Both the position numbers and the translations under genes were made by a program. From NCBI GenBank assembly GCA_902801485.1, contig CADCIP010000010.1:25465-89464 (forward strand): a stretch of 64,000 bases of DNA, in the 5' to 3' direction. Shown here piece by piece: positions 1 through 57,228 of the stretch (the first letter of the stretch is position 1; the number at the start of each line of letters is the position of its first letter). A model generated the notes under the pieces. It was not told the origin of the DNA and made no database searches. It worked only from the letters and a program-made list of their open reading frames with translations. Origin of the DNA: an uncultured Bacteroidales bacterium. GTDB taxonomy: Bacteria > Bacteroidota > Bacteroidia > Bacteroidales > Bacteroidaceae.

Positions 1-939
1 CAGAAAATGCAACAGATAAACATCCAGTGTGCGTTGTCCAATATATTGAAGGGCTTTCCCTACGGGATGTTCTGTGGTAAACCGTTTTTTATTATAGCGG
101 AAGAACATTACCACGATAAGTAACAGTGTGTACATGGCTGTGGTGCGGGGCAGGTTGGTCCATGCAAACTTCAGGGCGTGCCATTTGAAAATGTCGGCAC
201 AGCAGACTACAGCCAAGGTTGACACAAGGGGGAAGAACCAAACGCTGTCAAACAGTTTTTGTATTCTATCCCAATACCTGTGTACAATATTGCCCAAAAG
301 GAAGAACTGCGTGAAGCGGATGGTCTGAACGAAACTGGTATAGGAAAAGAACGGGTCCTTGTGGTATGAGAACAGCTTGGGAAGGTACAGTGTTTCGTAT
401 GCGGCGATGGAGAGAAACCAGACGGTAATCCAGAAGACCATCGAAAGTTGAAAGTTGAAAGTTGAGAGTTGAGAGTTTTTTCCTGAAACTTTTTCCTTTA
501 TCTTTTTCAGGTAATGGGCGATGATGCTGATGGTGTAGTAAATGAGGAACATCTGCAATAGAACCCAGGTAAACCAATATCCATCCTTGGTGGGACTCTT
601 TAGGGCATTCAGGAAACCTTCCCAAAAAGCATACTTGGATTTGAAGATGATAAATATACTCAGGAATATAAGGGCTGGTATAATCTGCACATGCAATTTT
701 TTAAGTACCAGAGGGATCGTATTTTTCAGATTCCATACGAAGTTTGCCTTATATGCCAGGAATCCGCTCACAAAAAAGAATAGGGGCATACGGAAGAGCA
801 CCAGAAAGGGTAGGGCTGCACTTGTCTTCTCATTTTCTACAAACCCGAACTGTGCCACATGATACGCCACCACCAGTATCATGGTAAATCCTCGCATGGC
901 ATCCAGCCATTCTATACGCTTTGATTCTTCACTCTTCAT
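1..939 (-). CDS. Acyltransferase family 3 membrane protein (O-acyltransferase). N-terminal 313 codons only; the ORF runs off the left window edge
   Basis: I translated the minus strand from the ATG at 939-937 and found no stop down to base 1. It is absent from the ORF track because it has no in-window stop. The translation MKSEESKRIEWLDAMRGFTMILVVAYHVAQF..FRMPLFFFVSGFLAYK, followed by multiple hydrophobic segments, is typical of Acyl_transf_3 N-termini. Confidence 0.7.
   Translation of the reverse strand, partial: MKSEESKRIEWLDAMRGFTMILVVAYHVAQFGFVENEKTSAALPFLVLFRMPLFFFVSGFLAYKANFVWNLKNTIPLVLKKLHVQIIPALIFLSIFIIFKSKYAFWEGFLNALKSPTKDGYWFTWVLLQMFLIYYTISIIAHYLKKIKEKVSGKNSQLSTFNFQLSMVFWITVWFLSIAAYETLYLPKLFSYHKDPFFSYTSFVQTIRFTQFFLLGNIVHRYWDRIQKLFDSVWFFPLVSTLAVVCCADIFKWHALKFAWTNLPRTTAMYTLLLIVVMFFRYNKKRFTTEHPVGKALQYIGQRTLDVYLLHFL
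443..477. repeat. In-CDS heptamer tandem repeat, GAAAGTT x3 + GAGAGTT x2
   Basis: Five contiguous 7-nt units read directly. On the coding (minus) strand they encode NSQLSTFNFQLS within the acyltransferase. Confidence 0.9.
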
Positions 940-984
940 TCTTCTTTTTAACTAGGGTCTAACGTCTAATGCCTAACGTCTTTC
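924..984. repeat. Short-repeat blocks at a gene junction: A[TC]TCTTC x3 (924-944, overlapping the acyltransferase ATG) and G[TC]CTAA[CT] x4 (957-984, overlapping the 3' end of the 734-aa CDS)
   Basis: Units read directly: attcttc actcttc attcttc, then gtctaac gtctaat gcctaac gtctttc. Confidence 0.85.
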
Positions 985-3170
985 TCTCCCCCAAGGGGGA
1001 GTAGGAGGGGGCTTACCTCCTTCGCGCATTGTTCTACATTATAATATTTCTCCGCTAAGAGTCGTCCCTTGCGCCCCATCTCTTTGGCTTCTTCGGGATG
1101 TGCTGCTATGTATTGGATAGCTCGTTCCCAACCTTCTCTGTCGTAAGGTTCCAGGTAAATACCGCATCCCTCAGCCTCCAGATCCATAGGCATCTGAGGA
1201 TTACGGGTACAGAGGATAGGTTTCCCTAAAGCCAGAGCTTCTACCACGGTGGTTAGTCCCACGGTATAGTTGCTTTGTTCGCAGCAGATACATACGCACT
1301 GACTCTGTGCTACCAGTAAGGCAATTTCGTAAGGCATGAGTCTGTCGCCAAATTGAAGGTTGATATTCTCTTTTATCTCAAGGTCAGCAAATATCCATTC
1401 CAGCTGTTTCTGGGTATAAAGAGTAAGGGGCTGCCCCGTATTATTAAAAGCCTCTGTCAATGTTTTATAGTCCCTCAGCTCTTTTCCTGTAGAGATAAAG
1501 GGGCAAGGGTGCTTGCCGTCGGGTCGCAGGCTATCATAGAATGCCAGATCAGCTCCCCAATGAACCATGCTCATGCGGGCCGGGTCGGCTTTTTCCGATT
1601 TCAAACTGTCCTGTATCAGTTTTTCAGAGAAAAAAATCATGTGGTCCATTCCTTTGTAGAATAGGCGTGCCAAAGTTTCGCGTAAACGACTTTTGGCTTC
1701 TACAATCGGTTGGTGATGCCATACCACAATCCTCTTCCGGTACAGACCTATGGCATGCAACAGTATTATGGGTTCAATTCCACGTGTATGTGTTGCATAC
1801 AGAATGTCGTATTGTTGACGACAAGTAAGAATCTTCCAACTGGCCTTCAGTGTATCCTGTACACGTTTGTATAAATGAATCTGATCATGCCAGATAACTT
1901 CATAGCCGTATTGCTCCAGTTGCAGTGCACCGTACAGAAAGTGGGCAGGAAATTTTCCGTCTTTCCATTCCCGGACAATGCGTGCCGTATCTTGGGTGTG
2001 ATAGAAATATACAGACCCTCTCCATACCTTCCCCTCTAAGGGGAGGCTCTTTCCGCTCAGCCAGAATACCCTTTCGATGTATGGCACCAACAGCGTGCAG
2101 ACGACAAGGACCAGGATGGTCATTGCCAGCATGTCAGGAATGCTCCTTTTGATGTTGTGCTCCATGAGCATCGAAATGTAAACATAGCACATAACCAGGG
2201 GGTAGTGCCCGATATAGTAAACCATGCTGTGCTCCCCGATATAGCAGATGCCTGGTATGCGTCTTACATGTGTGGTCAGCAGGATTCCTGACAGTCCGGT
2301 CAGTGCCAGCATCGTATTCAGCATCACACGCCAGAACGGTCCGATGAAGGTGTTGGTCTTCATTTCGTATTCACCATGCAGGTAGATGTTCACACATACA
2401 AACGCTACGACCAGGATGATGCTGGCAATCAGCCCCTTCTTGTCTTTTATCTTGTCCAATGTTATATGCCATACTTTTCCTAAATAGAAGAAAAAGGCAC
2501 CGCAGAAAACATTGTCCATCATGAAATAGAGAGGATTACCTTGTTTGAAAAGCCAATAGCTCAGCAAGGGGAAGACTAGGATTATCAGATGCAGGTGCCG
2601 GACTTTCTCTATAAAGTGGACTATAATATATGAGGTAAAGAAACAGGGGAGGAACCAGAGCGGACTATTGCCCCATGTAAAGCCTCCCGCCCATATATTG
2701 TAGTTTTGGAAGGAGCGTTCTGTGCCGGGAAATCTCCCGGGGAAGAGCAACATAAAGAACAGACATACACATGCGCTGATGGCAGCCCACGAGAAATAGG
2801 GAATCATCAACCGGCGGAACTTGTCCCAGCAGTAAGTCTTGGAATCACCTTGTACCCCTTTGTTGAAATAACCTGCCTTGAAGAAAAAGAAACTCATCAG
2901 GTAGAAACTCCACTCCATAATTGCCTTCCACCAGTCGGTCTGCCTGAGTGCTGTCTGGCAGACAACGTGCAGCGTTACCATCCTCAGGATGCATAGTCCG
3001 CACAGGATGTCAAAGGCGTGGTTCCGGAGGCCCCCTCCCTTCCTGACCACCTTCGTGAATGGGGATTCGCTCACCTTTGTGGGGCCGGAGCCACACTCAG
3101 TGGCTCCTCTGAAGACCCCAGTCGCCCTTTGGGTGAGGAGTTCTTTTTCTGTTGCTGTTGCTACATTCAT
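966..3170 (-). CDS. Fusion protein: multi-TM acyltransferase-3-like N-half plus GT4/GT1-like glycosyltransferase C-half (734 aa)
   Basis: 734-aa ORF. The N-half has about 10 hydrophobic segments (RNHAFDILCGLCILRMVTLHV..., acyltransferase-like). The C-half is soluble and carries a GT-B-like tail motif (GLTTVVEALALGKPILCT). The ATG overlaps the stop of the upstream flippase gene (ATGA). Confidence 0.65.
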   Translation of the reverse strand: MNVATATEKELLTQRATGVFRGATECGSGPTKVSESPFTKVVRKGGGLRNHAFDILCGLCILRMVTLHVVCQTALRQTDWWKAIMEWSFYLMSFFFFKAGYFNKGVQGDSKTYCWDKFRRLMIPYFSWAAISACVCLFFMLLFPGRFPGTERSFQNYNIWAGGFTWGNSPLWFLPCFFTSYIIVHFIEKVRHLHLIILVFPLLSYWLFKQGNPLYFMMDNVFCGAFFFYLGKVWHITLDKIKDKKGLIASIILVVAFVCVNIYLHGEYEMKTNTFIGPFWRVMLNTMLALTGLSGILLTTHVRRIPGICYIGEHSMVYYIGHYPLVMCYVYISMLMEHNIKRSIPDMLAMTILVLVVCTLLVPYIERVFWLSGKSLPLEGKVWRGSVYFYHTQDTARIVREWKDGKFPAHFLYGALQLEQYGYEVIWHDQIHLYKRVQDTLKASWKILTCRQQYDILYATHTRGIEPIILLHAIGLYRKRIVVWHHQPIVEAKSRLRETLARLFYKGMDHMIFFSEKLIQDSLKSEKADPARMSMVHWGADLAFYDSLRPDGKHPCPFISTGKELRDYKTLTEAFNNTGQPLTLYTQKQLEWIFADLEIKENINLQFGDRLMPYEIALLVAQSQCVCICCEQSNYTVGLTTVVEALALGKPILCTRNPQMPMDLEAEGCGIYLEPYDREGWERAIQYIAAHPEEAKEMGRKGRLLAEKYYNVEQCAKEVSPLLLPLGGEKDVRH
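986..1012 (+). repeat. GC-rich palindromic element copy E1 (CTCCCCC-AA-GGGGGAG-TA-GGAGGGGGC)
   Basis: Perfect 7-bp stem with a 2-nt loop followed by a G-rich tail. It lies inside the last 17 codons of the 734-aa CDS (..SPLLLPLGGEKDVRH). Confidence 0.85.
2015..2049 (-). repeat. GC-rich palindromic element copy E2 (reverse orientation) at the acyltransferase/GT junction
   Basis: The minus strand reads gagCCTCCCCttagaGGGGAAGGtatGGAGAGGGtc. It is translated in frame as SLPLEGKVWRGS around residue 375 of the 734-aa ORF. Confidence 0.8.
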
Positions 3171-4741
3171 TCTTGTGAATCTGGTTTGTTCTTGTGGGAT
3201 TTCTTCCCTCCCCTAAAGGGGAAGTTGGAGGGGGCTAAATATTCTATGCTTTCTCTCATAATCTTGGCACCGCTAATCCACATAATACCGGCATACAAGG
3301 TTGCTGCCATAACAATCCTGCTCAGCAGTCTTAGCCACATGATGGGTATTCCGCCTGTTGCCCACCAGGTAAAGGAATGAACGGCCAGTGTAAACACCAG
3401 GAAGGGCAGGATGTCCTTCAGTGTTTCCCTCCATCGTAAGCCTATCAGGCGTTTTGCGCACCACTGCCAGATGCCCAGCCATGCAACGTTCAGCCCGATA
3501 AAGTAGAGTACCATCGGCATCAGTCCCTTGGGATACAGAGGAATCAGACCCGCCCAAACGGCCAGACATTGCCCGATGGTGCACGCCAGGTTGATGTTAC
3601 TCTTGCCACGACTGATGGTGAGGTTGCTGTACAGCGTCGTAATGGGAACAACGGCACCGTGTATGCACAGCAGTGCTAATATGAGACCGCTTTCAGCCCA
3701 CTTTTCCTTTCCCACTAGCAGAATAAAGTCCTGTGCAATAATCGCCAATCCGAACATGGCGGGGAAGGTGACGAAGCAGGTGAAGCGCATCATCTTGCGG
3801 AATACGCTTCTGTATCGTTCGGTATCCTCGTTTACTTGGGCCAAAGTGGGCTGGGCCACGCTTGTAACCATACCGTTGATGGTGTTCGAAGCCATGTCGT
3901 CCCATTTCCTTGCTTGTGTATAGATACCTGCAACATGGTTGCTGATATACTTTTTCAGTAAAACGGAAAACGCTTCCCTGTTCAAAATGTTAAAGATGTT
4001 GGTAATCATTAACTTGCTGCTGAATCCGAACATCTGCCAGGCAGGAGCAAGGATAGCTGATAGTTGATAGTTGATAGTTGATAGTTGGGAACCATGGGGT
4101 GAGTACCCAGGTCGCTTCTGGCGACCTGTTCTGAAGGGGGCTGTCGGTCTCCAAGGCGAGAAGTACCATGCCATGGTCTGTACTACTACTACAAAACTGA
4201 CGGCCTGGATGACAAGACCCCAATAGTGGAATCCGTTACATGCTAAGGTAACGCCAATGATGCCGGAAATCAGAACGCCGCAGATGTTGCAGATGCTGGT
4301 TTCCTTTACCATCAGATGCCCAAAGAGATAGGCTCGTTGGGCGGTTCCTATACCAGAGAAAAGAAAGCCCAGGAATATTACTCTCGACAGTACCACATAG
4401 TCAGGGTCGTTATAGAAGTCTGCTATCAGCGGGGCACAGAACCACAATATCAGGTAGAGCGTTGCGCTCACCAGTATGTTGAACCAGAAGACGGCATTGT
4501 ATTCCTCGTGCGTAGGTTCCTTCTTGTTGCAGAGGGCAGCAATGAAACCGCTCTCCTGAAGGGCGTTTGCCAAGGCTGCAAAGATGTTTAGCGCAGCAAA
4601 CTTGCCATAATCGTCGGCGTCAAGTTCGTACATCAGTATAAGTCCGAACATGGCGCTAAACAACTGCATGATTCCGTTCGACAAACCTCCCCAGATAAGT
4701 CCTTTTGCCGTACGCTCTTTCAGAGTATTTTCAACATTCAT
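3167..4741 (-). CDS. Wzx-like polysaccharide/O-antigen flippase (MOP/PST family), 524 aa
   Basis: The N-terminus is MNVENTLKERTAKGLIWGGLSNGIMQLFSAMFGLILMYELDADDYGKF. With about 12 or more hydrophobic segments, it resembles Polysacc_synt-type flippases. It sits beside acyltransferase and GT genes. Confidence 0.75.
   Translation of the reverse strand: MNVENTLKERTAKGLIWGGLSNGIMQLFSAMFGLILMYELDADDYGKFAALNIFAALANALQESGFIAALCNKKEPTHEEYNAVFWFNILVSATLYLILWFCAPLIADFYNDPDYVVLSRVIFLGFLFSGIGTAQRAYLFGHLMVKETSICNICGVLISGIIGVTLACNGFHYWGLVIQAVSFVVVVQTMAWYFSPWRPTAPFRTGRQKRPGYSPHGSQLSTINYQLSAILAPAWQMFGFSSKLMITNIFNILNREAFSVLLKKYISNHVAGIYTQARKWDDMASNTINGMVTSVAQPTLAQVNEDTERYRSVFRKMMRFTCFVTFPAMFGLAIIAQDFILLVGKEKWAESGLILALLCIHGAVVPITTLYSNLTISRGKSNINLACTIGQCLAVWAGLIPLYPKGLMPMVLYFIGLNVAWLGIWQWCAKRLIGLRWRETLKDILPFLVFTLAVHSFTWWATGGIPIMWLRLLSRIVMAATLYAGIMWISGAKIMRESIEYLAPSNFPFRGGKKSHKNKPDSQE
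3203..3235 (+). repeat. GC-rich palindromic element copy E3
   Basis: cttCCCTCCCCtaaaGGGGAAGttGGAGGGGGC. It lies in the 3' end of the flippase CDS and encodes ..APSNFPFRGGKK.. of its tail. Confidence 0.8.
4052..4086. repeat. In-CDS heptamer tandem repeat, GATAGCT x1 + GATAGTT x4
   Basis: Four perfect units and one variant read directly. They encode SQLSTINYQLSAI in the flippase. Confidence 0.9.
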
Positions 4742-4848
4742 AGCACAAAAGTACAGACTTTTTAAAGAAAATCATGCATCTGTTTTACTGAAATCTCTTT
4801 TTTGCTGTATGATTGGTTCTTTTTTTTGGAAATTCGGCGAAATATTTC

Positions 4849-4856
4849 TACTTTTG
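4849..4856 (+). promoter_or_regulatory. Bacteroidetes-type -7 box (TACTTTTG, TAnnTTTG consensus) upstream of the V-ATPase D gene
   Basis: Exact match to TAnnTTTG about 40 nt upstream of the ATG at 4897, in a divergent intergenic region. Confidence 0.45.
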
Positions 4857-4896
4857 TGCCGATATTTGATTAATAGAGGCTAACTCAAAGTAATAG

Positions 4897-5520
4897 ATGG
4901 CAATAAAGTTTCAATATAATAAGACTTCTCTACAGCAGATCGAGAAGAATCTGAAGATGCGTCAGCGTACCTTGCCTATCATTAAAAGCAAGGAGACGGC
5001 TTTGCGTCTTGAGGTGAAGAAATGCAAGGAGGAGGCCGATGAACTTGAACAAAAACTGCAAAGTCAGATCGCTGGCTATGAGCGTATGTATGCGTTGTGG
5101 GGTGAGTTCGATACTTCGCTGGTAAGTCTGAAGGATGTGCAACTGAATGTAAAGAAGATAGCGGGTGTACGTGTTCCTATCCTCGAAAACATCGAGTTGG
5201 AGGTTCGTCCTTTCGGATTGTTCAGCGCTCCCAAATGGTATTTCGATGGAATCAACCTCCTTCAGGGGCTGGCAAAGACTGCTGTTGAACGGGAGTTCGT
5301 TTTCGCAAAGCTTCACCTGTTGGAGCATGCCCGTAAGAAGACAACCCAGAAAGTGAACCTTTTCGAGAAGGTGCAGATTCCGGGCTTCCAGGAGGCTGTC
5401 CGTAAGATCAAGCGTTTCATGGAGGACGAGGAGAACTTGTCTAAGTCGTCACAGAAGATTCTGAAATCTTTGCAGGAAAAGCGCCGTGCTGAGGACGAAG
5501 AAAAGGAGGTTGCCGTATGA
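4897..5520 (+). CDS. ntpD: V-type ATP synthase subunit D
   Basis: 207-aa coiled-coil protein beginning MAIKFQYNKTSLQQIEKNLKMRQRTLPIIKSKETALRLEV. Its stop overlaps the start of the subunit I gene (ATGA). Confidence 0.85.
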   Translation: MAIKFQYNKTSLQQIEKNLKMRQRTLPIIKSKETALRLEVKKCKEEADELEQKLQSQIAGYERMYALWGEFDTSLVSLKDVQLNVKKIAGVRVPILENIELEVRPFGLFSAPKWYFDGINLLQGLAKTAVEREFVFAKLHLLEHARKKTTQKVNLFEKVQIPGFQEAVRKIKRFMEDEENLSKSSQKILKSLQEKRRAEDEEKEVAV

Positions 5521-7385
5521 TTGAGAAAATGAAAAAGTTCACCTTCTTGGTGACAGAAAAAGAATATGATTCTTTCATCGCCTCACTGCGTGAACTGGGT
5601 GTAGTACATGTTCAGCAGTTACAGAAAGGTGCCACCAGCGAGGAGTTGCAAGACGGTATGGCGCTGGAGCAACGTTACAAGTCGGTACTTCAGGCTTTGG
5701 AGATTTATACCAAGACCTATAAGGAAATAACAGTTCCTCAGACTATCCGGGAAAATGCCTTACCCGAGGCATTACTGAAGCATGTCGAAGATTTGCAGGC
5801 CGAGGAGTTGAATCTGTTGCATAATATCGATGCGTTGCAGAAGAATATCAGTATGCTGGAGCCCTGGGGCGACTTCGACCCTGCCAGTGTGAAACACCTT
5901 TCCGATACAAGTGCCCAGCAGATTCATTTCTACCGTTGCAGTACCAAGTTCTTCAAGCACGAATGGGTAGATGCCTATTTTGCTACGCCTATCAACGAGC
6001 AGGACAAAAGTACATATTTCATCACCTTCAGCGAGGAAACGCCCGACATACAGGCTGAGCAGATTTTCCTTCCTGCAGGAACATTAAGCGGTTATATCGC
6101 CGAGCGCAAAGCAGAAGAGGAGAAACTGAATGCCGTTCGTGCTGAACTGTTGTATATCAATGCCAACCTGCGTCCCGAATTAGAGAAGGGTCTTGTAAAG
6201 GTGCAGAACGATATTTCTCTCAGTAAGGTTCATCTTAGCGACGAGCGTATTGCCGGTGATATGGTTCGTCTGATGATGGGCTGGGTACGTGCCGACAAGA
6301 CAGAAGCCCTTGTGGAGTATCTCGAGAAGGACAGGATTTATTACGAGATGGAAGACCCTGCATACGAGGATGATGTGCCCATTCAGATAACAAACGGTAG
6401 TTACACAAGTCTCTTCGAGCCCATCTTGCGTATGTATTCTCTGCCCAACTACCACGATATCGACCCCTCAATCTTCTTTGCTCCTTTCTTCATGCTGTTC
6501 TTTGGCTTGTGCTTAGGCGACGGCGGCTATGGCCTGCTGGTTCTCCTGGGTGGAGCTTATCTGGCATGGAAGGGTTCAGATGATATGAAGAGCTATGGAC
6601 GTCTGGGTATCTGGCTAGGTTTGGCAACCACCATCTGTGGCCTCTTCACCGGAACCGTATTCGGAATCGACCTGACGAAGCAGGATTGGGCATTGTTGGC
6701 CCCTGTCAAGCCATACTTTATCAACGATAACGGTATTGGTCCCATCTTCGGTTACTCGCCCATGATGGTATTATCTGTAATCATCGGTTTGGTTCAGGTT
6801 TTGCTTGGTATGGTGCTGAAGGCTTGCAAAGCCTGGAGAAACTATGGTTTCGGCTATTCCATCGGTACATTCAGTTGGGTATTTGCCCTGCTTTCGCTCA
6901 TAGCCCTATATGGCTTGCCTGCCTGTAACGTTGTTTTGCCGGAACCTGTTCGGTATGTGCTCATGGGAATTATCGGCATCAGTGTCATTGGTATCTTCCT
7001 GTACAATAATCCATCAGCATACAAGAACCCCATTACCGGACCGTTGCTTAATATCGGTGGCGGCGTATGGGCTACATATAATATGTCAACGGGTTTGTTG
7101 GGCGACTTGCTCAGTTACATCCGTCTCTTTGCGCTCGGACTGACAGGTGGTGTGTTGGGCGGTGTGTTCAATTCACTTGCTTTCGACCTCACCAGCAGTT
7201 TGCCTTGGTTTATCCGTTGGCTGCCGATGGTCCTCATCCTGCTGGCAGGTCATGGTATCACCTTCGCCCTGAGTATGATCAGTGCTTTCGTGCATCCCAT
7301 GCGACTCACTTTCGTGGAGTTCTTCAAGAATGCTAACTTCGAGGGTGGTGGCAAGGAGTACACTCCGTTCAGGACGGTAAAGTGA
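5517..7385 (+). CDS. ntpI: V-type ATP synthase subunit I (a-subunit, stator/proton channel)
   Basis: 622 aa. It has a soluble N-half and a multi-TM C-half containing LSYIRLFALGL, the conserved Arg helix of a-subunits. It lies between the D and K genes. Confidence 0.9.
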   Translation: MIEKMKKFTFLVTEKEYDSFIASLRELGVVHVQQLQKGATSEELQDGMALEQRYKSVLQALEIYTKTYKEITVPQTIRENALPEALLKHVEDLQAEELNLLHNIDALQKNISMLEPWGDFDPASVKHLSDTSAQQIHFYRCSTKFFKHEWVDAYFATPINEQDKSTYFITFSEETPDIQAEQIFLPAGTLSGYIAERKAEEEKLNAVRAELLYINANLRPELEKGLVKVQNDISLSKVHLSDERIAGDMVRLMMGWVRADKTEALVEYLEKDRIYYEMEDPAYEDDVPIQITNGSYTSLFEPILRMYSLPNYHDIDPSIFFAPFFMLFFGLCLGDGGYGLLVLLGGAYLAWKGSDDMKSYGRLGIWLGLATTICGLFTGTVFGIDLTKQDWALLAPVKPYFINDNGIGPIFGYSPMMVLSVIIGLVQVLLGMVLKACKAWRNYGFGYSIGTFSWVFALLSLIALYGLPACNVVLPEPVRYVLMGIIGISVIGIFLYNNPSAYKNPITGPLLNIGGGVWATYNMSTGLLGDLLSYIRLFALGLTGGVLGGVFNSLAFDLTSSLPWFIRWLPMVLILLAGHGITFALSMISAFVHPMRLTFVEFFKNANFEGGGKEYTPFRTVK

Positions 7386-7392
7386 ATAACGA

Positions 7393-7445
7393 AACCGCTA
7401 ATCGCTAACCGCTAACCGCTAACCCGTAAACAGTAAACCGTAAAC
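7393..7445. repeat. Heptamer blocks AA[CT]CGCT x4, then [CA]GTAAAC x3
   Basis: Read directly, immediately after the ntpI stop codon. Confidence 0.9.
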
Positions 7446-7594
7446 AAAATAAATATTAATCCCTCATAAGACATCGTTCGTTTTTCGTAACGAAGCTGGC
7501 TAACCAAAATAGTAATTCTTTATATAAATAAGGTTGCAAAGCCCGGTTCGGCAAAGCCCAAATTATAAATGATGAATGATGGATTATGAATTAA

Positions 7595-8056
<462 letters not shown>

Positions 8057-8204: not shown

Positions 8205-8459
8205 GTTTACAGTTTACGGTTTACAGTTTACGGTTTACAGTTTACCGTTTACCGTTTACAGTTCCGCTAACCGCTAATCGCTAGCCGCTAATCGCTAATC
8301 GCTAACCTCTAGCCGCTAACCTACCGCTAACCTCTAACCGCTAACCTCTAACCGCTAACCTCTAACCGCTAATCGCTAACCTCTAATCGCTAATCGCTAA
8401 TCGCTAACCGCTAATCGCTAATCGCTAACCGCTAACCTCTAACCGCTAATCGCTATACC
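8205..8459. repeat. About 255-bp heptamer array: [CAG]GTTTAC x8, then about 28 units of C[GT]CTAA[CT]/CCTCTAA
   Basis: Read directly. It fills the space between the convergent ntpK and outer membrane protein genes. Confidence 0.95.
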
Positions 8460-11591: not shown

Positions 11592-13067
11592 ATGAAAGAC
11601 CAAGAAAATTTCTTTGCTGTCGATTTGGGTGCCACCAGTGGACGAACCATTTTAGGCTCAATCCAAAATGGTAAACTTACCCAGCGCGAACTTACACGCT
11701 TTCCCAATCAGATAATCCAGTTGGGTGGCCATTTCTATTGGGATATCTATGCCCTATACAACGAGATTATTCGGGGCCTGAAACTTGTGGCCGAAGAGAA
11801 AATACAACTTACCAGCATCGGTATCGACACATGGGGTGTGGATTTCGTTTGCGTAGGTCGGGATGGTGCACTCCTGCGTAATCCTTATAGCTACCGCGAC
11901 CCTCATACCGTAGGTGAGATGGATGCTTATTTCCAGTTGATTTCTCGCGAGAAGGTTTACGAGAAGACGGGCATTCAGTTCATGAACTTTAATTCGCTGT
12001 TCCAGTTGGCTGCCATGCGCAGAAACAACGACTCGGCACTGGATGCCGCCGGTAAAATCCTTTTTATGCCGGATGCGCTGACCTATATGCTAACAGGAGA
12101 GGCGGTTTGCGAATATACGATTCTCTCCACCAGCCAGATGCTGAATCCGCGTACCAAAAAGATTGATGCCGAGTTGTTGGATGTTATCGGCCTGAAGGAA
12201 AGTCAGTTCGGCCGTTATGTCAACCCAGCTGATAGGGTAGGGACGCTAACGCCCGAAGTGCAGCAGTTGACGGGCCTTGGCCCTGTACCTGTTGTAGCTG
12301 TTGCCGGACACGATACTGCTTCTGCCGTAGCAGCCGTTCCAGCCCAAGACACCAATTATGCTTATCTCAGTTGTGGAACCTGGAGTCTTTTGGGTATCGA
12401 GACGCAGGATGCCATCATCAATCAGAAGAGTTACCAGTATAACTTCACCAACGAAGGCGGTATAGAAGGTACCACCCGTTTCCTGAAGAACATCTGTGGC
12501 ATGTGGCTCTTGGAGCGTTGCCGTCAGGAGTGGACCGATGCCCCGTCTGATGTTAATAAGGTAAATGCTGATGCTATGGAGGCAGAGCCGTTCCGCAGTT
12601 TCATCAATCCCGATGATTCCCGTTTTGCTAATCCCCCCAGTATGGTAAAAGCAATCCAGGATTACTGTCGCGAGACAAACCAACCCGTTCCCGAGACATA
12701 CCGTCAGTTGGCTCGCTGCATCTTCGAAAGCCTTGCACTTCGCTACCGTCAGGTCATTGGCTATCTGCGCGAGCTGGCTCCCTTCCCCATACAGAAATTG
12801 CATGTCATAGGAGGTGGAACACACAACCGTTACCTGATGCAGATGACGGCCGACTGTCTTGGCATCCCTGTCATCACAGGTCCTGTCGAGGGTACTGCCA
12901 TCGGTAATATCATGTTGCAGGCCAAAGCTGCAGGTCTGGTTACCGACATCTTCCAGATGCGTCGCATCATAGCCGACAGTATCGATCTGCATACCTATCT
13001 TCCCCAGGATACCCACTCTTGGGAAGAAGCCTATAAGAGATTCCAGGGCTATTCCAGGTTATCCTAG
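11592..13067 (+). CDS. rhaB: Rhamnulokinase
   Basis: 491 aa. FGGY-kinase N-terminus FAVDLGATSGRTILG. Immediately upstream of rhaA, rhaT and rhaD. Confidence 0.85.
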   Translation: MKDQENFFAVDLGATSGRTILGSIQNGKLTQRELTRFPNQIIQLGGHFYWDIYALYNEIIRGLKLVAEEKIQLTSIGIDTWGVDFVCVGRDGALLRNPYSYRDPHTVGEMDAYFQLISREKVYEKTGIQFMNFNSLFQLAAMRRNNDSALDAAGKILFMPDALTYMLTGEAVCEYTILSTSQMLNPRTKKIDAELLDVIGLKESQFGRYVNPADRVGTLTPEVQQLTGLGPVPVVAVAGHDTASAVAAVPAQDTNYAYLSCGTWSLLGIETQDAIINQKSYQYNFTNEGGIEGTTRFLKNICGMWLLERCRQEWTDAPSDVNKVNADAMEAEPFRSFINPDDSRFANPPSMVKAIQDYCRETNQPVPETYRQLARCIFESLALRYRQVIGYLRELAPFPIQKLHVIGGGTHNRYLMQMTADCLGIPVITGPVEGTAIGNIMLQAKAAGLVTDIFQMRRIIADSIDLHTYLPQDTHSWEEAYKRFQGYSRLS

Positions 13068-13135
13068 TCCCACTAGCCGTTCTAGTCCTACTAGTTAAAC
13101 TAGTTCCTCTAGCTAATTATATAAACTATATAAAT
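13064..13135. repeat. 9-nt-period CTAG-word repeat x6, then TATATAAA[CT] x2. It fills the whole rhaB-rhaA spacer
   Basis: CTAG cores at 13064, 13073, 13082, 13091, 13100 and 13109. The rhaB TAG stop is the first CTAG. Confidence 0.9.
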
Positions 13136-14389
13136 ATGAAAAAAGAACTTTTAAACCAAGCTTATTCCGTAGCCCAGCAGCGCTACGCAGAAATCGGAGT
13201 TGATACCGAGAAAGTATTGAAACAGATGCAGGACTTCCACCTCTCCCTTCATTGCTGGCAGGCCGACGATGTGAAAGGCTTTGAAGTACAGGCCGGTGCC
13301 CTCAGTGGTGGCATCCAGAGTACGGGCGATTTCCCTGGTGCAGCTCGTAACATCGACGAATTGCGTTCGGATATCCTCAAGGCCATGAGCCTCATTCCCG
13401 GTAATCACCGTCTGAACCTTCACGAAATCTATGGCGATTTCCAGGGTAAGGTTGTTGACCGTGACGAGGTGACCGTAGAATTCTTCCAGAGTTGGATCGA
13501 CTGGGCCAAGGCCAACAACACCAAGTTGGATTTCAACAGCACCAGCTTCTCGCACCCCAAGAGCGGCAACCTTACGCTGGCCAATCCCGATAAGGGAATC
13601 CGCGATTTCTGGATCGAGCACACCAAGCGTTGCCGTGACATTGCCAATGCCATGGGCGAGGCACAGAATGACCCCTGTATCATGAACCTTTGGGTACACG
13701 ACGGCTGTAAGGACCAGAGTGTGAACCACATGATGTACCGTCATTTCCTCAAGGAGTCTCTCGATGAGATCTTCCAGAAGAAACAGCCCATGATGAAGGA
13801 TTGTCTCGAAGGTAAGGTCTTCGGTATCGGTCTGGAGAGTTTTACCGTCGGATCGCATGACTTCTATACAGCTTATTGTTCCAAGAACAATGTAATCCAG
13901 ACTATCGATACCGGTCATTATCATCCTACAGAGAGTCCGGCCGACAAGGTCAGTGCCCTTCTCGATTTCATTCCCGAGCTCATGTTGCATGTCAGCCGTC
14001 CCATCCGTTGGGATTCCGACCACGTGACCATCATGGACGATCCCACCCAGGAACTCTTCTCCGAGATCGTACGTGCCGGAGCCCTCAACCGTGTTCACTA
14101 TGGCCTCGACTTCTTCGATGGCAGCATTAACCGTATCGGTGCTTATGTTATTGGTTCCCGCAGTGCCCAGAAGTGTATGCTCCGCGCTTTGTTAGAGCCC
14201 ACCCAGACTATCAGCCGGTACGAGTTGGCAGGCGAAGGCTATAAGGTACTTGCCCTCTTGGAGGAAGCAAAGGCCCTTCCCTGGCAGGCTGTTTACGATG
14301 AGTTCTGCCTTCGCAACAATGTTCCCGTAGGTCAGGACTTCATAAAGGATATAGATAATTATGTTGCAGATACAATCAGCAAACGGTAA
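13136..14389 (+). CDS. rhaA: L-rhamnose isomerase
   Basis: 417 aa. The N-terminus, AQQRYAEIGVDTEKVLKQMQDFHLSLHCWQADDVKGFE, closely parallels E. coli RhaA (..SMHCWQGDDVSGFE). Confidence 0.95.
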   Translation: MKKELLNQAYSVAQQRYAEIGVDTEKVLKQMQDFHLSLHCWQADDVKGFEVQAGALSGGIQSTGDFPGAARNIDELRSDILKAMSLIPGNHRLNLHEIYGDFQGKVVDRDEVTVEFFQSWIDWAKANNTKLDFNSTSFSHPKSGNLTLANPDKGIRDFWIEHTKRCRDIANAMGEAQNDPCIMNLWVHDGCKDQSVNHMMYRHFLKESLDEIFQKKQPMMKDCLEGKVFGIGLESFTVGSHDFYTAYCSKNNVIQTIDTGHYHPTESPADKVSALLDFIPELMLHVSRPIRWDSDHVTIMDDPTQELFSEIVRAGALNRVHYGLDFFDGSINRIGAYVIGSRSAQKCMLRALLEPTQTISRYELAGEGYKVLALLEEAKALPWQAVYDEFCLRNNVPVGQDFIKDIDNYVADTISKR

Positions 14390-14480
14390 ACGGTAAACAG
14401 TAAACAGTAAACCGTAAACCGTAAACAGTAAACTTAAAAGAAGAGTCTCTAACCTTTCAATTCTCAATTTTCAATTCTCA
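14384..14480. repeat. C[GAC]GTAAA x7 (14384-14432) and [CT]T[TC]TCAA x4 (14454-14480). Together they make up most of the rhaA-rhaT spacer
   Basis: Read directly. The rhaA TAA stop is supplied by the first unit, and the last unit abuts the rhaT ATG. Confidence 0.9.
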
Positions 14481-15524
14481 ATGATACTCATCGGATTACT
14501 TATCATCGCCATAGGCGCTTTTTGTCAGTCCAGTAGCTATGTGCCCATCAACAAGATCAAGTCCTGGAGTTGGGAAAGCTATTGGTTGGTTCAGGGCATC
14601 TTTGCCTGGCTCATCCTGCCATTCTTAGGTGCGTTACTGGCTGTCCCTGATGGACATAGCCTCTGTGAACTCTTCACCTCAGAGAATAGCTTTAATATTT
14701 GTATGACGATTCAGTTCGGTATTCTCTGGGGCATAGGCGGATTAACTTTTGGTTTGAGCATGCGCTACTTGGGGGTAGCCTTGGGACAGAGTATTGCCCT
14801 GGGAACCTGTGCTGCCCTTGGAACCATCATGGGACCTGTCTTCCTCAGTTGGTTCTTCCCCGAGCAGGATCCGCTTTCCAAGCTTACTTTCTCCGTCCTT
14901 GTCGGTGTGGCTGTCACGCTCATCGGTATTGCCATCATCGGCATTGCCGGCAATATGAAAGCAAAGGCCCTTTCTAATTCCCTCCCTCAAGGGGAGGGCC
15001 AGGGAGGGGCAGGGGATTTCAATTTCCCCAAGGGTCTCTGCATAGCACTCTTGGCAGGCTTCATGAGCGGATGTTTCAATGTGGGTCTGACCTTTGGAGC
15101 CGATATCAACTTCGGCGAGCTTACCGACCCCATGTTCCGTGCTCTCCCTGCCACGTTGCTCGTAACTATGGGCGGTTTCGTTACCAATGCCGTGTATTGC
15201 CTATACCAGAACCATAAGAACCGGACATGGTCGGATTACAGCAATAAATCCGTTTGGGGCAACAACATTCTGTTCTGCCTCCTGGCCGGTGCCCTGTGGT
15301 ACAGCCAGTTCTTCGGCTTGTCGTTGGGTCAGGGATTCCTGCGGGAGTCACCCGAGCTCATCACCTTCTCCTTCTGCATCCTCATGGCATTGAACGTAAC
15401 GTTCAGTAATGTCTGGGGCATCATACTAAAGGAATGGAAGGGCTGCAGTCGTAAGACCATCACCGTTCTGCTCATAGGCATAGCCATCCTCATCCTCAGT
15501 TCCTTTATTCCACAGTTAGTTTAA
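14481..15524 (+). CDS. rhaT: L-rhamnose/proton symporter
   Basis: 347 aa, about 10 TM segments. INKIKSWSWESYWLVQGIFAWLILPF parallels E. coli RhaT (KKVKKWSWETMW..). It sits within the rha operon. Confidence 0.9.
   Translation: MILIGLLIIAIGAFCQSSSYVPINKIKSWSWESYWLVQGIFAWLILPFLGALLAVPDGHSLCELFTSENSFNICMTIQFGILWGIGGLTFGLSMRYLGVALGQSIALGTCAALGTIMGPVFLSWFFPEQDPLSKLTFSVLVGVAVTLIGIAIIGIAGNMKAKALSNSLPQGEGQGGAGDFNFPKGLCIALLAGFMSGCFNVGLTFGADINFGELTDPMFRALPATLLVTMGGFVTNAVYCLYQNHKNRTWSDYSNKSVWGNNILFCLLAGALWYSQFFGLSLGQGFLRESPELITFSFCILMALNVTFSNVWGIILKEWKGCSRKTITVLLIGIAILILSSFIPQLV
14978..15015 (+). repeat. GC-rich palindromic element copy E4 inside rhaT. It also contains a G-quadruplex motif
   Basis: ttCCCTCCCTcaaGGGGAGGGccaGGGAGGGGCaGGGG, translated as SLPQGEGQGGAGD. 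There are five G3+ tracts with loops of 1-3 nt on the coding strand. Confidence 0.85.
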
Positions 15525-15579
15525 CCCATAAGCCCCATAGGTCCTATAGGTCCCATAAGCCCCATAAGTCTTATAAACA
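15525..15579. repeat. Six 9-nt units of the CCCATAAGC family. They constitute the entire rhaT-rhaD spacer
   Basis: cccataagc cccataggt cctataggt cccataagc cccataagt cttataaac, plus one further base (a) before the ATG. Confidence 0.95.
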
Positions 15580-16401
15580 ATGAATAGTATTCTTTCTTTT
15601 CGCCCAGCCCTGAAAGCCGTTATCGATCAGGTAGCCGAAGTTACCGGTTACCTTTGGCAAAACGGGTGGGCCGAGCGCAACGGCGGTAACATCACCGTAA
15701 ATATCACAGAGTTTTCAGATGCAGAGATGGCCGCAATGCCGGCTCTTGTACCTGCCATACAGATTGGCAAGGAACTCCCTATGCTCAGAGGCAAGTTCTT
15801 CTATGCCAAGGGAACAGGCAAGCGCATGCGCGATCTGGCTCGCGAACCCATGCAGAACGGTTCCATCATCCGTATTTGTCCCGATTGTGCCAGCTACGAG
15901 ATTATTGCCGACGAGCCTGTCCTTCCCACCAGCGAACTGCCCAGCCACCTGGCGCTGCAGAACTATCTCCTGCTGACGGGTAGCACCTATAAGGCAACCC
16001 TCCATACCCATCCCATCGAGTTGGTGGCCATGTCGCATATCCGTCGTTTCTTAGATAGCGACGAACTGACCCGCGTCCTTTGGTCTATGATTCCCGAAAC
16101 CCTCGCCTTTGCTCCCTTAGGCATTGGCGTCGTACCTTATAAGATACCCGGCTCAATAGAGTTGGCAGATGCCACCTTGGAACAGATAAAGAGGCACGAT
16201 GTGGTGCTGTGGGAGAAGCACGGCACGGTTGCAGTCGGTACCGATATCATGGATGCTTTCGACCAGACAGATGTCCTCTGCAAAGCAGCCAAGATCTATC
16301 TTGCCGCCCGCAGCATGGGTGAGGAACCCGAGGGCATGACTCCCCAGGCCGTGAAGGAAATCCAGCAGGTCTTCAGACTCCCCATTAGCAGGCCCTGCTG
16401 A
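15580..16401 (+). CDS. rhaD: Rhamnulose-1-phosphate aldolase
   Basis: 273 aa. GYLWQNGWAERNGGNITVNI parallels E. coli RhaD (..KGWDERNGGNLTLRL). It has the His-rich class II aldolase core (HTHP). Confidence 0.9.
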   Translation: MNSILSFRPALKAVIDQVAEVTGYLWQNGWAERNGGNITVNITEFSDAEMAAMPALVPAIQIGKELPMLRGKFFYAKGTGKRMRDLAREPMQNGSIIRICPDCASYEIIADEPVLPTSELPSHLALQNYLLLTGSTYKATLHTHPIELVAMSHIRRFLDSDELTRVLWSMIPETLAFAPLGIGVVPYKIPGSIELADATLEQIKRHDVVLWEKHGTVAVGTDIMDAFDQTDVLCKAAKIYLAARSMGEEPEGMTPQAVKEIQQVFRLPISRPC

Positions 16402-16419: not shown

Positions 16420-16467
16420 GACGTTAACGTCAACGTCAACGTTTTTAATTATCAATTATCAATTATC
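16420..16467. repeat. AACGT[CT] hexamer x4 (palindromic, followed by T5), then AATTATC x3
   Basis: Read directly between the convergent rhaD and yfhO-like genes. GACGTTAACGTC is a perfect palindrome, so it may act as a terminator. Confidence 0.85.
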
Positions 16468-16469
16468 AA

Positions 16470-19007
<2,538 letters not shown>

Positions 19008-19012
19008 TATTT

Positions 19013-19081
19013 CAACGATAACGTTAACGTTAACGATAACTTTTTTTCTTTGTCTTTAACCTTTAACCTATAACCTATAAC
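19013..19081. repeat. CAACGATAACGTTAACGTTAACGATAACT module (19013-19041), then C[TC][TA]TAAC x4 (19054-19081), directly upstream of the yfhO-like ATG
   Basis: Read directly. The 29-nt module is identical to 57108-57136. Confidence 0.9.
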
Positions 19082-19179
19082 CGTTATATTCTTCAAGAAC
19101 AAGAAAGTGAGAAGCGCAACATTAGATGAGCACTCCTCACTTCATAGGATTTCACTTTTAGAAAAGTTACCGCCCTTAA

Positions 19180-19210
19180 CTCTCCCCCAAAGGGGGAGCA
19201 GGGAGGGGGC
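19180..19210 (+). repeat. GC-rich palindromic element copy E5, 9 nt downstream of the rpsO stop
   Basis: CTCTCCCCCaaaGGGGGAGcaGGGAGGGGGC. Confidence 0.85.
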
Positions 19211-19218
19211 CACGTTTT

Positions 19219-19488
19219 TTACTTACGCAGACCCAGAGCCTTGACGATAGCACGATAGCGGTTGATGTCGCGTGACTTCAAGTAGTTGAGGAGTGCACGA
19301 CGCTTACCTACGAGACCGGTCAGGGCACGCTCTGTGCTGTGGTCCTTACGGTTCTGCTTCATGTGCTCAGTCAGATGGCTGATACGGAATGAAAACAAAG
19401 CAATCTGGCTCTCAGCGCTACCAGTGTCGGTAGTACCCTTACCAAACTTGCCGAAGATCTCTTCTTTTTTTGCTGAATCCAAATACAT
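19219..19488 (-). CDS. rpsO: 30S ribosomal protein S15
   Basis: 89 aa: MYLDSAKKEEIFGKFGKGTTDTGSAESQIALFSFRISHLTEHMKQNRKDHSTERALTGLVGKRRALLNYLK. This is a canonical S15. Confidence 0.97.
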   Translation of the reverse strand: MYLDSAKKEEIFGKFGKGTTDTGSAESQIALFSFRISHLTEHMKQNRKDHSTERALTGLVGKRRALLNYLKSRDINRYRAIVKALGLRK

Positions 19489-20087: not shown

Positions 20088-20136
20088 ACCCCCACTTCCC
20101 ATTTGGGGGAAGAGGGGGTAGGGGGTTGAAGAGGGG
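20088..20136 (+). repeat. Variant GC-rich element E7, also a G-quadruplex motif, 6 nt downstream of the 7536-aa gene stop
   Basis: cccccaCTTCCCatttGGGGGAAGaGGGGGtaGGGGGttgaagaGGGGc. Four G4+ tracts with loops of 4, 2 and 7 nt. Confidence 0.8.
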
Positions 20137-20141
20137 CTTCT

Positions 20142-42778: not shown

Positions 42779-42786
42779 CAAAGTTA
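42779..42786 (-). promoter_or_regulatory. Proximal -7 box TAACTTTG for the 7536-aa gene, 27 nt upstream of its ATG. It is overlapped by the palindrome ACTTTGC-gga-GCAAAGT (42768-42784)
   Basis: Exact TAnnTTTG match on the minus strand, with TTTG 19 nt further upstream. Confidence 0.5.
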
Positions 42787-42965
42787 CGTATAAGCGAGAG
42801 AATAACAAAATAAATCGAAGATTTTTTTTTGTTTTTCCGAGCGAAAGTAAGTTAGAACGCAGTTCAATGTTACGCATAAGTGAGAGAATAACCAAAAGAA
42901 ACGGAAGTTTTTTTTGGTTTTTCCGAGCGAAAGTAAGTTAGAACGTAGTTCAAAGTTACGCAAAT
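42779..42965 (-). repeat. 86-bp direct repeat, 2.2 copies, each carrying a -33 TTTG / -7 TAAC[TA]TTG promoter-like pair
   Basis: The reverse complement of the -7 box (caaagtta / caatgtta / caaagtta) occurs at 42779, 42865 and 42951, an exact 86-nt period. The units are about 85 percent identical by eye. Confidence 0.85.
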
Positions 42966-57227: not shown

Positions 57228-57228
57228 T

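Follow-up and report, generated by a model that had tools for sequence, protein, structure and literature searches.

Short palindromes beside stop codons raise the question of whether they serve the RNA of the genes at whose ends they lie or have come to rest there as traces of something mobile. Seven such GC-rich palindromes, designated E1 to E7, are present in a 64,000-nt stretch of an uncultured Bacteroidales genome (contig CADCIP010000010.1, positions 25,465 to 89,464; hereafter, the window). A sequence-only reading had likened them to repetitive extragenic palindromic (REP) elements or Rickettsia palindromic elements (RPE), and had assigned them a role at gene 3′ ends as mRNA stabilizers or non-canonical terminators. 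The palindromes are indeed a real repeat family; their origin, by contrast, appears to be a different one. The window copies are probably nuclease-less solo ends or decayed doublets, and the family as a whole represents, on this interpretation, the terminal inverted repeats of a small selfish cassette that settles at gene junctions.

Seven copies of one palindromic unit

All seven palindromes (Table 1) could be read directly in the window, at or a few bases away from where the sequence-only reading had placed them. On the listed strand, the unit runs from a C-arm, with CTCCCCC or a sequence close to it, through a loop (2-5 nt), a G-arm (GGGGGAG) and a spacer (2-3 nt) to an outer terminus, GG(G)AGGGGGC, which takes the form GGAGGGGGC at right ends and GCCCCCTCC at left ends. 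The description of a C/G stem with a short loop and a second G-run was thus accurate (stems of 5-8 bp, loops of 2-5 nt); E4 and E6 hold four or more G-runs. A strict pattern (CCCC..GGGGR..GGAGGGG) matched four loci in the window and none in 100 dinucleotide-preserving shuffles, and a fuzzy three-block pattern recovered exactly the seven copies and nothing else, against an expectation of 0.08 under first-order Markov resampling. Searches of the window against Rfam gave no match at gathering thresholds and, at E ≤ 5, only an unrelated one at 21930-21980; a tRNA scan returned nothing relevant.

The unit is polar. We refer to the left-end (LE) orientation when the terminus GCCCCCTCC, C-arm, loop and G-arm follow one another on the strand of the neighbouring gene, and to the right-end (RE) orientation when the polarity is opposite, with the G-rich strand as sense. 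E1, E3, E5, E6 and E7 are all LE relative to minus-strand genes, in agreement with the earlier statement that five copies share one relative orientation at the 3′ ends of such genes. The termini of E5, E6 and E7 start 7, 4 and 6 nt past the stops of rpsO, the open reading frame (ORF) of 7536 aa and ORF 57266-58573, respectively. E1 and E3 are read through, their host ORFs ending 16 and 37 nt past them, and E1 supplies the last residues of its coding sequence (..SPLLLPLGGEKDVRH*), as had been noted. The broader statement that copies sit at or inside gene 3′ ends holds for these five and fails for E2 and E4, which lie in the middle of ORFs with RE polarity, opposite to the other five relative to the host gene. 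Two further, decayed pieces on the minus strand had not been listed previously (Table 1). In the same species, ~4.9 kb past the right end of the window, there is an eighth intact copy with RE polarity (CTCCCCCGAGGGGGAGCGGAGAGGGGGC; L251 3384-3411), separated by 27 nt from the ATG of a downstream 115-aa gene that forms a pair with a ParE-like toxin gene; no DUF559 gene was found there.

DUF559 cassettes and the wider repeat family

A pattern scan restricted to one genome per species yielded at least 119 genome tiles, mostly of Bacteroidota (rumen Prevotellaceae and Bacteroidaceae, Chitinophagales, Marinilabiliales and Saprospirales), and the family statistics given here are based on the matches listed. 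Among these, the consensus is cCTCCCCC-loop-GGGGGAGG-yy-GG(G)AGGGGGC-t, with variable loops, and the 119 tiles listed contain at least 228 fuzzy copies. The characterization of the palindromes as a dispersed REP/RPE-like family is therefore supported by repeat counts both in the window and in other Bacteroidota. Copies lying no more than 150 nt apart are arranged with their termini outward (LE then RE) in 41 cases among the tiles listed, versus 6, 5 and 6 in the other arrangements. These LE-RE doublets span 70-190 nt and in this respect resemble REPINs (REP doublets) or miniature inverted-repeat transposable elements (MITEs).

Polarity extends to the position of copies relative to genes. Of 39 intergenic copies, 21 have their terminus side at -12 to +7 nt relative to a stop codon, and several others have it ~15 nt ahead of an ATG; on the hairpin side, the distance to a gene is at least 23 nt throughout. 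The outer terminus always points toward the body of the host gene, so that the C-rich strand is sense after stops and the G-rich strand is sense in N-terminal codons. Tabulated across the family, as the sequence-only reading had recommended, position and orientation thus confirm the association with stops for these 21 copies but also reveal copies at 5′ ends, within ORFs and in reverse polarity. About half of the strict copies reside inside long ORFs, as delimited by a crude ORF caller, in both orientations. All six frames are open in 58% of copies; for random genomic segments of matching length, the figure is 12%.

What links the palindromes to a mobile element is the gene found between them. 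ORFs with two inverted copies encode a DUF559 domain (Pfam PF04480, E 1e-34) between the copies, and tblastn searches located such genes in six of the tiles (Table 1), including one in frame inside valyl-tRNA synthetase (ValRS). The N-terminus of AsnRS in L120 carries an in-frame RE and starts from an ATG that overlaps the DUF559 stop. The closest DUF559 homologues are mostly free-standing proteins of 122-145 aa, and the two that could be located are inserted into operons, in the orders argG-DUF559-argC and leuA-DUF559-leuC, with the same kind of ends and a small extra hairpin in the spacer of these ends. In both, LE overlaps or abuts the stop of the upstream gene and RE forms an in-frame part of ArgC or LeuC; the new ATG of argC overlaps the DUF559 stop (ATGA), and that of leuC follows it by a few bases. 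(The leu operon hosting the cassette also has a PDDEXK_3 gene, PF13366, between leuD and leuB: L150 5729-6109, L151 5711-6091.) In every cassette examined, LE and RE are reverse complements, that is, terminal inverted repeats. The window copies belong to the same family as these cassette ends, since the core of E5, CTCCCCCAAAGGGGGAGCAGGGAGGGGGC, and the RE of the L120 DUF559 cassette match at all but 1 of 29 bases.

The cargo of the cassettes is a DUF559 nuclease of 120-130 aa alone, and no DDE-type transposase is present in the cassettes examined. Against the Protein Data Bank (PDB), the DUF559 proteins match 3hrl (E 4e-19) and, weakly, 3r3p, the catalytic domain of I-Bth0305I (E 3e-3); D, E and H residues are invariant across ten aligned cassette proteins. 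The cassettes in ValRS, the IcmF-like mutase and L091 are read through, and their junctions (KV|APSL.. and ..GGGL|GVEG) are unlike intein ends.

The association was also examined in reverse, from the nuclease to the ends. In 80 metagenomic DUF559 loci, 74 of which had usable flanks, an LE-like end was present upstream in 22, an RE-like end downstream in 25 and both in 16; control windows displaced by 800 nt gave 0 of 49 and 1 of 49. A generic inverted-repeat search then recovered ends of the same C-run/G-run style in ~25 apparent negatives, such that roughly three quarters of the 74 loci are bracketed by ends of this kind. DUF559 proteins have been found enriched among inverted-repeat-flanked targets of 'programmed inversion' (Milman et al., PMC9881135), which is what such inverted ends would produce.

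Target-site duplications are not a feature of the family: a direct repeat of at least 4 nt was found at 1 of 41 doublets, compared with a permuted mean of 1.3. Alignments and the 170 strict copies listed contain no conserved GTAG or CGTC tag, the conserved unpaired part being GG(G)AGGGGGC.

The following scheme would accommodate these observations. A full cassette comprises LE (GCCCCCTCC, spacer, C-arm, loop, G-arm), a gene for a Vsr-like PD-(D/E)xK nuclease of the DUF559 family, and RE (C-arm, loop, G-arm, spacer, GGAGGGGGC); it resides at junctions of co-directional genes or in permissive loops within genes. LE abuts or overwrites the last codons of the upstream gene, the interior brings a stop codon and a new ATG, and RE, read in frame, supplies the N-terminal residues encoded by the downstream gene. 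Composed of C-runs and G-runs, the ends contain stops in almost no frame and code for linkers rich in Pro, Gly and Ser, so that a cassette can be translated without destroying its host; this translatability in any frame would also be what lets such ends persist. Loss of the nuclease gene would leave the LE-RE doublets, and further decay would leave solos whose polarity still records the cassette, with C-rich sense after stops and G-rich sense at N-termini. A break or nick introduced by DUF559 would start copying, presumably through recombination or gene conversion with the ~30-nt ends as homology, a route that fits the replacement at E4 and the mosaic spacer of rpsO described below; classical cut-and-paste transposition is improbable. 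The structural and evolutionary part of this account we hold to be fairly probable, the enzymatic mechanism clearly less so. More tentatively, the copies might be non-autonomous progeny of an undescribed class of mobile elements, in which a Vsr-like DUF559 nuclease and hairpin inverted repeats overwrite junctions and loops, bring their own stop and start codons together with stop-free Pro/Gly-encoding ends, live within operons and essential genes (ValRS, AsnRS, LeuC, ArgC) that stay active, and, as a side effect, remodel protein termini and fuse genes.

Core-motif matches outside Bacteroidota were obtained in Devosia, Rhodocyclaceae, Nitrospirae, Chloroflexus and Streptomyces; some may represent related families and some chance matches in GC-rich DNA. 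In Devosia and relatives (L008, L022, L030, L038, L045, L073-L075, L097, L114, L118) and in Rhodocyclaceae (L013, L033, L037, L099, L124), the core motif has longer conserved flanks, the alpha- and betaproteobacterial flanks reading ..cacctcCCCC..GGGAGGGGGCcgtct... The Devosia copies form doublets with outward termini and a 52-60 nt interior, and one DUF559 gene lies 2 kb away in L038.

Gene junctions and protein ends at the copies

Three of the copies are located in a block of polysaccharide genes. On the minus (gene) strand, E1 reads GCCCCCTCC-TA-CTCCCCC-TT-GGGGGAG(AG) and encodes ..SPLLLPLGGE. Homologues of this glycosyltransferase (GT) without E1 end in ..EVAKIIKNEG* or similar, and those with E1 end in ..PLLLP(L/R)GGEKD(V/F)R(H/S)*. 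The copy is also polymorphic: in eight of ten strain contigs, a 107-nt AT-rich segment replaces the C-arm and loop. E2 and E3 are fixed among the strain contigs compared. As for the commoner E1 allele itself (940-1012 versus L126, L128-L134), its 107-nt segment is of heptamer type, with a second acyltransferase start region (..AAAAAATGAAGAGTGAAGG..), and the GT protein is 730 aa long versus 734. The GT ORF takes its stop (966-968) from the cassette interior joined to E1, and the same interior holds the start (ATG, 937-939) of the next acyltransferase gene, which continues beyond the window. In the related contig L239, LE copies at two junctions are followed by homologous interiors (AAAGACGTCAGACCCTAG..ATG), with the same protein tail, GG(E/G)KD(V/F)R(H/P/S)*.

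E2, in sense AGCCTCCCC-TTAG-AGGGGAAGG-TAT-GGAGAGGGTC, encodes SLPLEGKVWRG, the linker between the Acyl_transf_3 and Glycos_transf_1 domains of the 734-aa ORF. Stand-alone GT homologues begin with M(K/T)VYFYHTQD precisely at the end of E2, fused homologues have variable P/G/S/R linkers at its position, and the DNA of the acyltransferase/GT junction in L239 is a collapsed LE+RE pair. The match of the E2 boundary to the start of stand-alone proteins, together with the collapsed pair, indicates that the element fused two genes.

E3 is read through as ..APSNFPFRGGKK.., giving the protein end ..APSNFPFRGGKKSHKNKPDSQE*, and the wzx stop that follows it (3167-3169) overlaps the ATG of the next ORF (ATGA). 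At the same wzx/acyltransferase junction, L239 has a complete doublet, in which LE is followed by a 53-nt interior with TAG/TAA for wzx and the acyltransferase ATG, then by RE and the conserved body of the enzyme; downstream of the GT gene there is another, homologous mini-cassette. The junctions of E3 and E1 in the window are thus occupied in L239 by complete mini-cassettes (LE, stop, ATG, RE). To judge from its alignment with the intact L239 RE, GAACACCTCCCCTCTGGGAGGGTGGAAGGGGGTC, the decayed RE copy in the acyltransferase is the probable partner of E3. A second RE terminus remnant encodes ..RKGGGL.. directly before the conserved acyltransferase body (RNHAFDIL). The Pfam Acyl_transf_3 match starts at residue 50, and both decayed pieces sit in the 49-residue N-terminal extension that precedes it.

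E4, in sense CCCTCCC-TCAA-GGGGAGGG-CCA-GGGAGGGGC, occupies the central loop of the rhamnose/H+ symporter RhaT and encodes ..SLPQGEGQGGAG... RhaT homologues that are 91% identical have ..SASLSEEEKRQAVK.. where the window has ..AKALSNSLPQGEGQGGAG.., and at the DNA level ~36 nt have been exchanged for 48 nt (net +12), which amounts to a replacement rather than a clean insertion. The suggestion that the element can be absorbed into reading frames is accordingly well founded: it forms the tails at E1 and E3, a linker at E2 and a loop at E4, and element-less orthologues show the parts that were replaced.

E5 follows rpsO. Among ten places with an identical S15 protein, five carry an LE-type element after the stop and five lack E5; in the latter, a canonical hairpin with a T-run comes directly after the rpsO stop, in some cases followed by an inserted 23S_rRNA_IVP gene. 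The comparison of orthologous 3′ ends with and without the element that had been suggested therefore reveals variation between homologues or strains at E1 and E5. E6, with the terminus GAAGAGGGGC and extra G-runs, is aberrant; it recurs in the same-species contig L248 and is absent from L242-L246. Relatives of the 7536-aa ORF next to it carry Fn3_assoc, CHB_HEX_C_1 and Peptidase_M26_N domains, and the length of this ORF varies between strains from 7011 to 7525 aa. Between E7 and the start of the 4447-aa ORF lie heptamer arrays and a palindrome of AACGTT type. Such an AACGTT-type array and AAGGTTAAAGAC occur in the spacer downstream of E5 as well as in that downstream of E7, and the two spacers are on this account homologous mosaics. 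Overall, the consequences for the hosts (replacement of tails, fusion of genes, replacement of loops) look incidental.

Table 1 Features of the window and DUF559 loci in other contigs (window coordinates; cells are empty where nothing applies)
Feature	Location	Strand	Description
E1	984-1012	+	inside 3′ end of ORF 966-3170
E2	2014-2048	-	mid-ORF, ORF 966-3170
E3	3206-3235	+	3′ end of wzx flippase ORF 3167-4741
E4	14980-15010	+	central loop of RhaT
E5	19180-19211	+	after rpsO stop
E6	20089-20137	+	aberrant variant, after stop of 7536-aa ORF
E7	57231-57259	+	after stop of ORF 57266-58573
Cassette interior joined to E1	937-983	-	AAAGACGTTAGGCATTAGACGTTAGACCCTAG..ATG
Decayed RE copy	3114-3140	-	CTCCTCACCCAAAGGGCGACTGGGGTC, in acyltransferase N-terminal extension
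Second RE terminus remnant	3029-3043	-	GGAAGGGAGGGGGCC
rpsO intrinsic terminator (probable; outside element)	19095-19143	-	14-bp hairpin then UUCUUGUUCUU, 37 nt downstream of E5
DUF559 cassette	L058		between LE and RE, in frame inside ValRS
DUF559 cassette	L091		Prevotella contig, between LE and RE, read straight through
DUF559 cassette	L101		between LE and RE, in frame in IcmF-like mutase
DUF559 cassette	L120		Alloprevotella contig, between LE and RE
DUF559 cassette	L123		Prevotellaceae, between ends, three tandem LEs
DUF559 locus	L103		degenerate ends
Fused Acyl_transf_3 + Glycos_transf_1 ORF	966-3170	-	734 aa
wzx flippase	3167-4741	-	
V-ATPase subunits D, I, K	4897-8056	+	
rhaB, rhaA, rhaT, rhaD	11592-16401	+	
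yfhO	16470-19007	-	
rpsO (S15)	19219-19488	-	
Giant ORF	20142-42752	-	7536 aa
Giant ORF	43767-57110	-	4447 aa
In-frame heptamer array	4052-4087		wzx ORF, ..QLSTINYQLS..
In-frame heptamer array	17686-17717		yfhO ORF, ..QLSTLNSQL..
In-frame heptamer array	56982-57014		N-terminus of 4447-aa ORF, ..MFNVQCSMFNV..

Alternative explanations, setting and implications

Several points weigh against the interpretation of the copies as cassette ends. Solos and doublets far outnumber the copies that bear DUF559, and no DUF559 gene is present in the window, in the sampled contigs of the same and related species, or in the extension past the right end. An action of DUF559 on the ends is itself putative, strand transfer is beyond what a nuclease of 120 aa can carry out alone, and the doublets might have existed first, with the gene invading them later instead of mobilizing them. 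Swapping the C-arms among 108 copies anchored without the C-arm gave 5.88 versus 5.98 bp, so that covariation did not exceed what conservation of the sequence would give, probably because a single stem is common to most of the copies sampled. The stems of sub-families (CCCTCCC/GGGAGGG, CCTCTCCC/GGGAGAGG and TCCCCCC/GGGGGGA) hint at compensatory change. It should also be noted that the tiles were picked with the strict pattern, which biases the statistics toward canonical copies, and that ORFs were called crudely by a longest-ORF heuristic. Finally, the copies may have a by-product effect on RNA 3′ ends, which is neither needed nor sufficient for the observed pattern.

The possibility of a later invasion can be developed into an explanation of its own, in which the doublets are an independent REPIN-like repeat moved by some other enzyme, and a DUF559 homing-endonuclease gene uses the repeat as landing site and homology arms. 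The predominance of doublets without DUF559, the invariable position of DUF559 between complete ends, the existence of bona fide homing endonucleases in the Vsr-like family and the lack of target-site duplications would all be expected in this case. Against it, all-against-all clustering of 57 hairpin-side ORFs gave no recurrent family (a survey that included no profile search aimed at REP-associated tyrosine transposases, RAYTs), and the presence of ends around about three quarters of the DUF559 subfamily fits co-evolution at least equally well. We consider a secondary invasion unlikely.

The role proposed by the sequence-only reading, in which GCCCCCUCC..CUCCCCC-loop-GGGGGAG after stops ends transcription non-canonically or shields mRNA from exonucleases, appears more doubtful still. 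REP hairpins in E. coli protect mRNA 3′ ends from exonucleases, and the five window copies just past or over stops in one orientation, the 21 of 39 intergenic copies abutting a stop, and the stable stems (-13 to -26 kcal/mol) would suit such a role. We discarded fold energy as evidence, however, as the gene-strand copies do not differ significantly from shuffled sequences, any sequence with a C-run and a G-run folding well. Intrinsic termination requires a U-tract after the stem-loop, and six of the seven copies have none: a stem-plus-T-run scan covering E1-E5 made no terminator-like call, E7, beyond the range of that scan, has no T-run after the stem on the gene strand, and the gene-strand bases following the hairpin are AGAAAG at E1, GAAGAA at E3, AGUUAA at E5 and GAAAGU at E7. 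E6 is the sole window copy with a U-tract (UUUUCUUUU, after a 12-bp stem on the gene strand), and it alone could act as a terminator.

Nor do the copies mark the ends of transcription units. E2 lies within a fused ORF. E3 lies at the ATGA overlap between wzx and the acyltransferase gene, and relatives at the argG/argC and leuA/leuC junctions, translationally coupled positions at which termination would be harmful. E5 precedes a separate hairpin with a U-rich tail (dG -23.4 kcal/mol, z -4.4), which is conserved in L136, where U8 follows; this hairpin, and not E5, is likely the rpsO terminator. Strains without E5 have a canonical terminator in the equivalent place, an observation that could be read in favour of an RNA role, but E5 itself is dispensable among strains. 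Copies in reverse polarity at 5′ ends and within ORFs, outward doublets and the linkage to DUF559 are left unexplained by a function in RNA. The bias toward 3′ ends is better explained as that of one end of a polar junction cassette.

A third explanation, for which we see very little room, is that of classical REP/REPIN sequences moved by a RAYT, an IS200/IS605-type Y1 transposase, encoded elsewhere. The REP/REPIN-RAYT system, reportedly described by Bertels and Rainey (2011) and Nunvar (2010), shares with the present family imperfect palindromes of 25-35 nt, high copy number, inverted doublets, a gene flanked by inverted copies, some intragenic copies and, like other HUH-type elements, no target-site duplication. 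In the present family, however, the stems are pure C-runs and G-runs with an extra outer G-run terminus, start/stop polarity is strong and in-frame translation routine, the latter being unusual for REPs, and the gene flanked by inverted copies is a multicopy DUF559 PD-(D/E)xK nuclease rather than an HUH Y1 transposase, although no profile search was aimed at RAYT. All 28 REP families described carry a GTAG or CGTC tag (Di Nocera 2013, PMC3733652), which is lacking here. Selection by the host for a Pro/Gly-rich peptide module or a regulatory G-quadruplex or hairpin switch in DNA, suggested by the G-runs of E4 and E6 and by the flexible linkers encoded, is scarcely credible given that every frame and either orientation are represented among the copies, some of which lie in non-coding DNA, that the peptides change with the frame and the host proteins are unrelated, and that copies show presence/absence polymorphism and decay by point mutation in relatives.

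The solo ends of a junction cassette, as we interpret the palindromes, can be set beside other known elements. RPEs, reported by Ogata et al. in 2000, are said to be ~100-150 bp long, confined to Rickettsia and devoid of an associated nuclease gene. Like E1-E4, they are selfish palindromes inserted in frame into unrelated protein genes and translated as an extra peptide; compared by size and host phylum, not by sequence, they differ from the solos studied here, which are ~30 nt long, lie at gene termini and junctions, and supply stops and starts. The mobile GC clusters of yeast mitochondria and the hairpin repeats of fungal and sponge mitochondria are likewise short GC-rich palindromes in AT-richer genomes, polymorphic between strains, sometimes in frame (var1) and spread in a manner resembling gene conversion, but they are organellar, have other sequences and no DUF559 partner. 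In T-even phages, the free-standing homing endonuclease genes seg and mob (GIY-YIG or HNH) spread by 'intronless homing', that is, by break repair with co-conversion of flanks. These nuclease genes, too, are wedged between conserved neighbours and, in the phages, expressed with the host operon; they have no terminal inverted repeats or non-autonomous repeat progeny. Transposons and MITEs with terminal inverted repeats resemble the cassettes in those repeats, whereas target-site duplication and a DDE transposase are not found here.

Closest in cargo is the Vsr-like family of homing endonuclease genes, members of which reside in group I introns or, in 'fractured genes', between split inteins (Dassa 2009, PMC2677866); the intron-encoded I-Bth0305I belongs here too (PMC3239194). 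In the study of fractured genes, hairpins were noted ahead of the nuclease ORFs, and in one case that lacked an intein both fragments carried additional residues at the break (PMC2677866). Common to these genes and the cassettes are a small gene for a Vsr-fold nuclease inside or between conserved genes, in the orientation of the host, and RNA hairpins upstream. Here, in contrast, there is no intron or intein, the GC-rich inverted ends are translated, many doublets and solos lack the nuclease, and the insertion is often a domain that is read through instead of a split of the host gene. Literature searches on REP in Prevotella, DUF559, in-frame palindromes, Vsr-like homing endonucleases, REPIN/RAYT in Bacteroidetes and GC-rich Prevotella palindromes returned no description of the element. 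What is new is the linkage of the repeat to DUF559 cassettes and the junction-overwriting design; the kinds of component, a REPIN- or MITE-like repeat and a homing-endonuclease-like cargo, are known.

With respect to its setting, the window derives from a rumen or gut Bacteroidales genome, Prevotella-like; proteins identical to those of the window occur on rumen metagenome contigs in ENA, and close RhaT homologues are labelled 'Bacteroidaceae bacterium' in metagenome-assembled genomes (MAGs). The V-ATPase operon is split (window 1-8056, L126-L135), A and B being separated from D, I and K by three opposite-strand polysaccharide genes (acyltransferase, acyltransferase-GT fusion and wzx), whose junctions carry E1-E3. 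Other repeats abound. Period-7 tandem arrays, each with its own unit (CCGCTAA x27.9, GTTTACA x8.4, CAGTAAA x8.1), fill most intergenic spacers, often before start codons (8264-8455, 8205-8263, 14377-14433, 7393-7446, 443-477, 57156-57228, 19054-19086, 58633-58691, 16447-16472 and others), and presumably resemble the heptamer STRR repeats of cyanobacteria. Three of the arrays are in frame within ORFs (Table 1), three 7-nt units coding for 7 aa; coding sequence has here taken up another type of repeat. A near-identical 29-nt AACGTT-type palindromic array, GTTATCGTTAACGTTAACGTTATCGTTGA, is found at 19012-19040, a few nt before the yfhO ATG, and at 57107-57135, where it overlaps the listed TTG start (57110) of the 4447-aa ORF, 8 nt before an in-frame ATG; a related array is at 16421-16442. 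In some strains, the rpsO-yfhO spacer (L002 14599-14994, L241 1899-2342, L248 2057-2452) contains, after the rpsO terminator, a gene for a 23S_rRNA_IVP or bAvd-like four-helix bundle protein flanked by inverted GGAAGTTAAA-type arrays, which looks like another small selfish cassette in the same spacer. One strain has a 21-nt direct duplication, CCTTGACGATAGCACGATAGC, in the 3′ part of rpsO (L001 14760-14800), its S15 being called at 110 versus 89 aa. The 1-kb spacer between the two giant ORFs contains an 86-nt tandem repeat (2.1 copies) and 22-nt repeats, at 42779-42962 and 43407-43538.

If the link to DUF559 holds, a very common nuclease with a domain of unknown function would be the engine or a passenger of a REPIN-like family in Bacteroidota, the dominant phylum of the gut and rumen. 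This would explain a number of oddities in MAG annotation, such as Pro/Gly-rich tails, N-terminal extensions, gene fusions, an 'endonuclease domain' in housekeeping enzymes and false calls of 'programmable inversion'. The repeats are hot spots of strain variation, and as such are usable as strain markers and a likely cause of assembly breaks. Finally, the family would offer a concrete, testable way for selfish DNA to rewrite the termini of proteins and to fuse genes, as exemplified by the acyltransferase-glycosyltransferase fusion.

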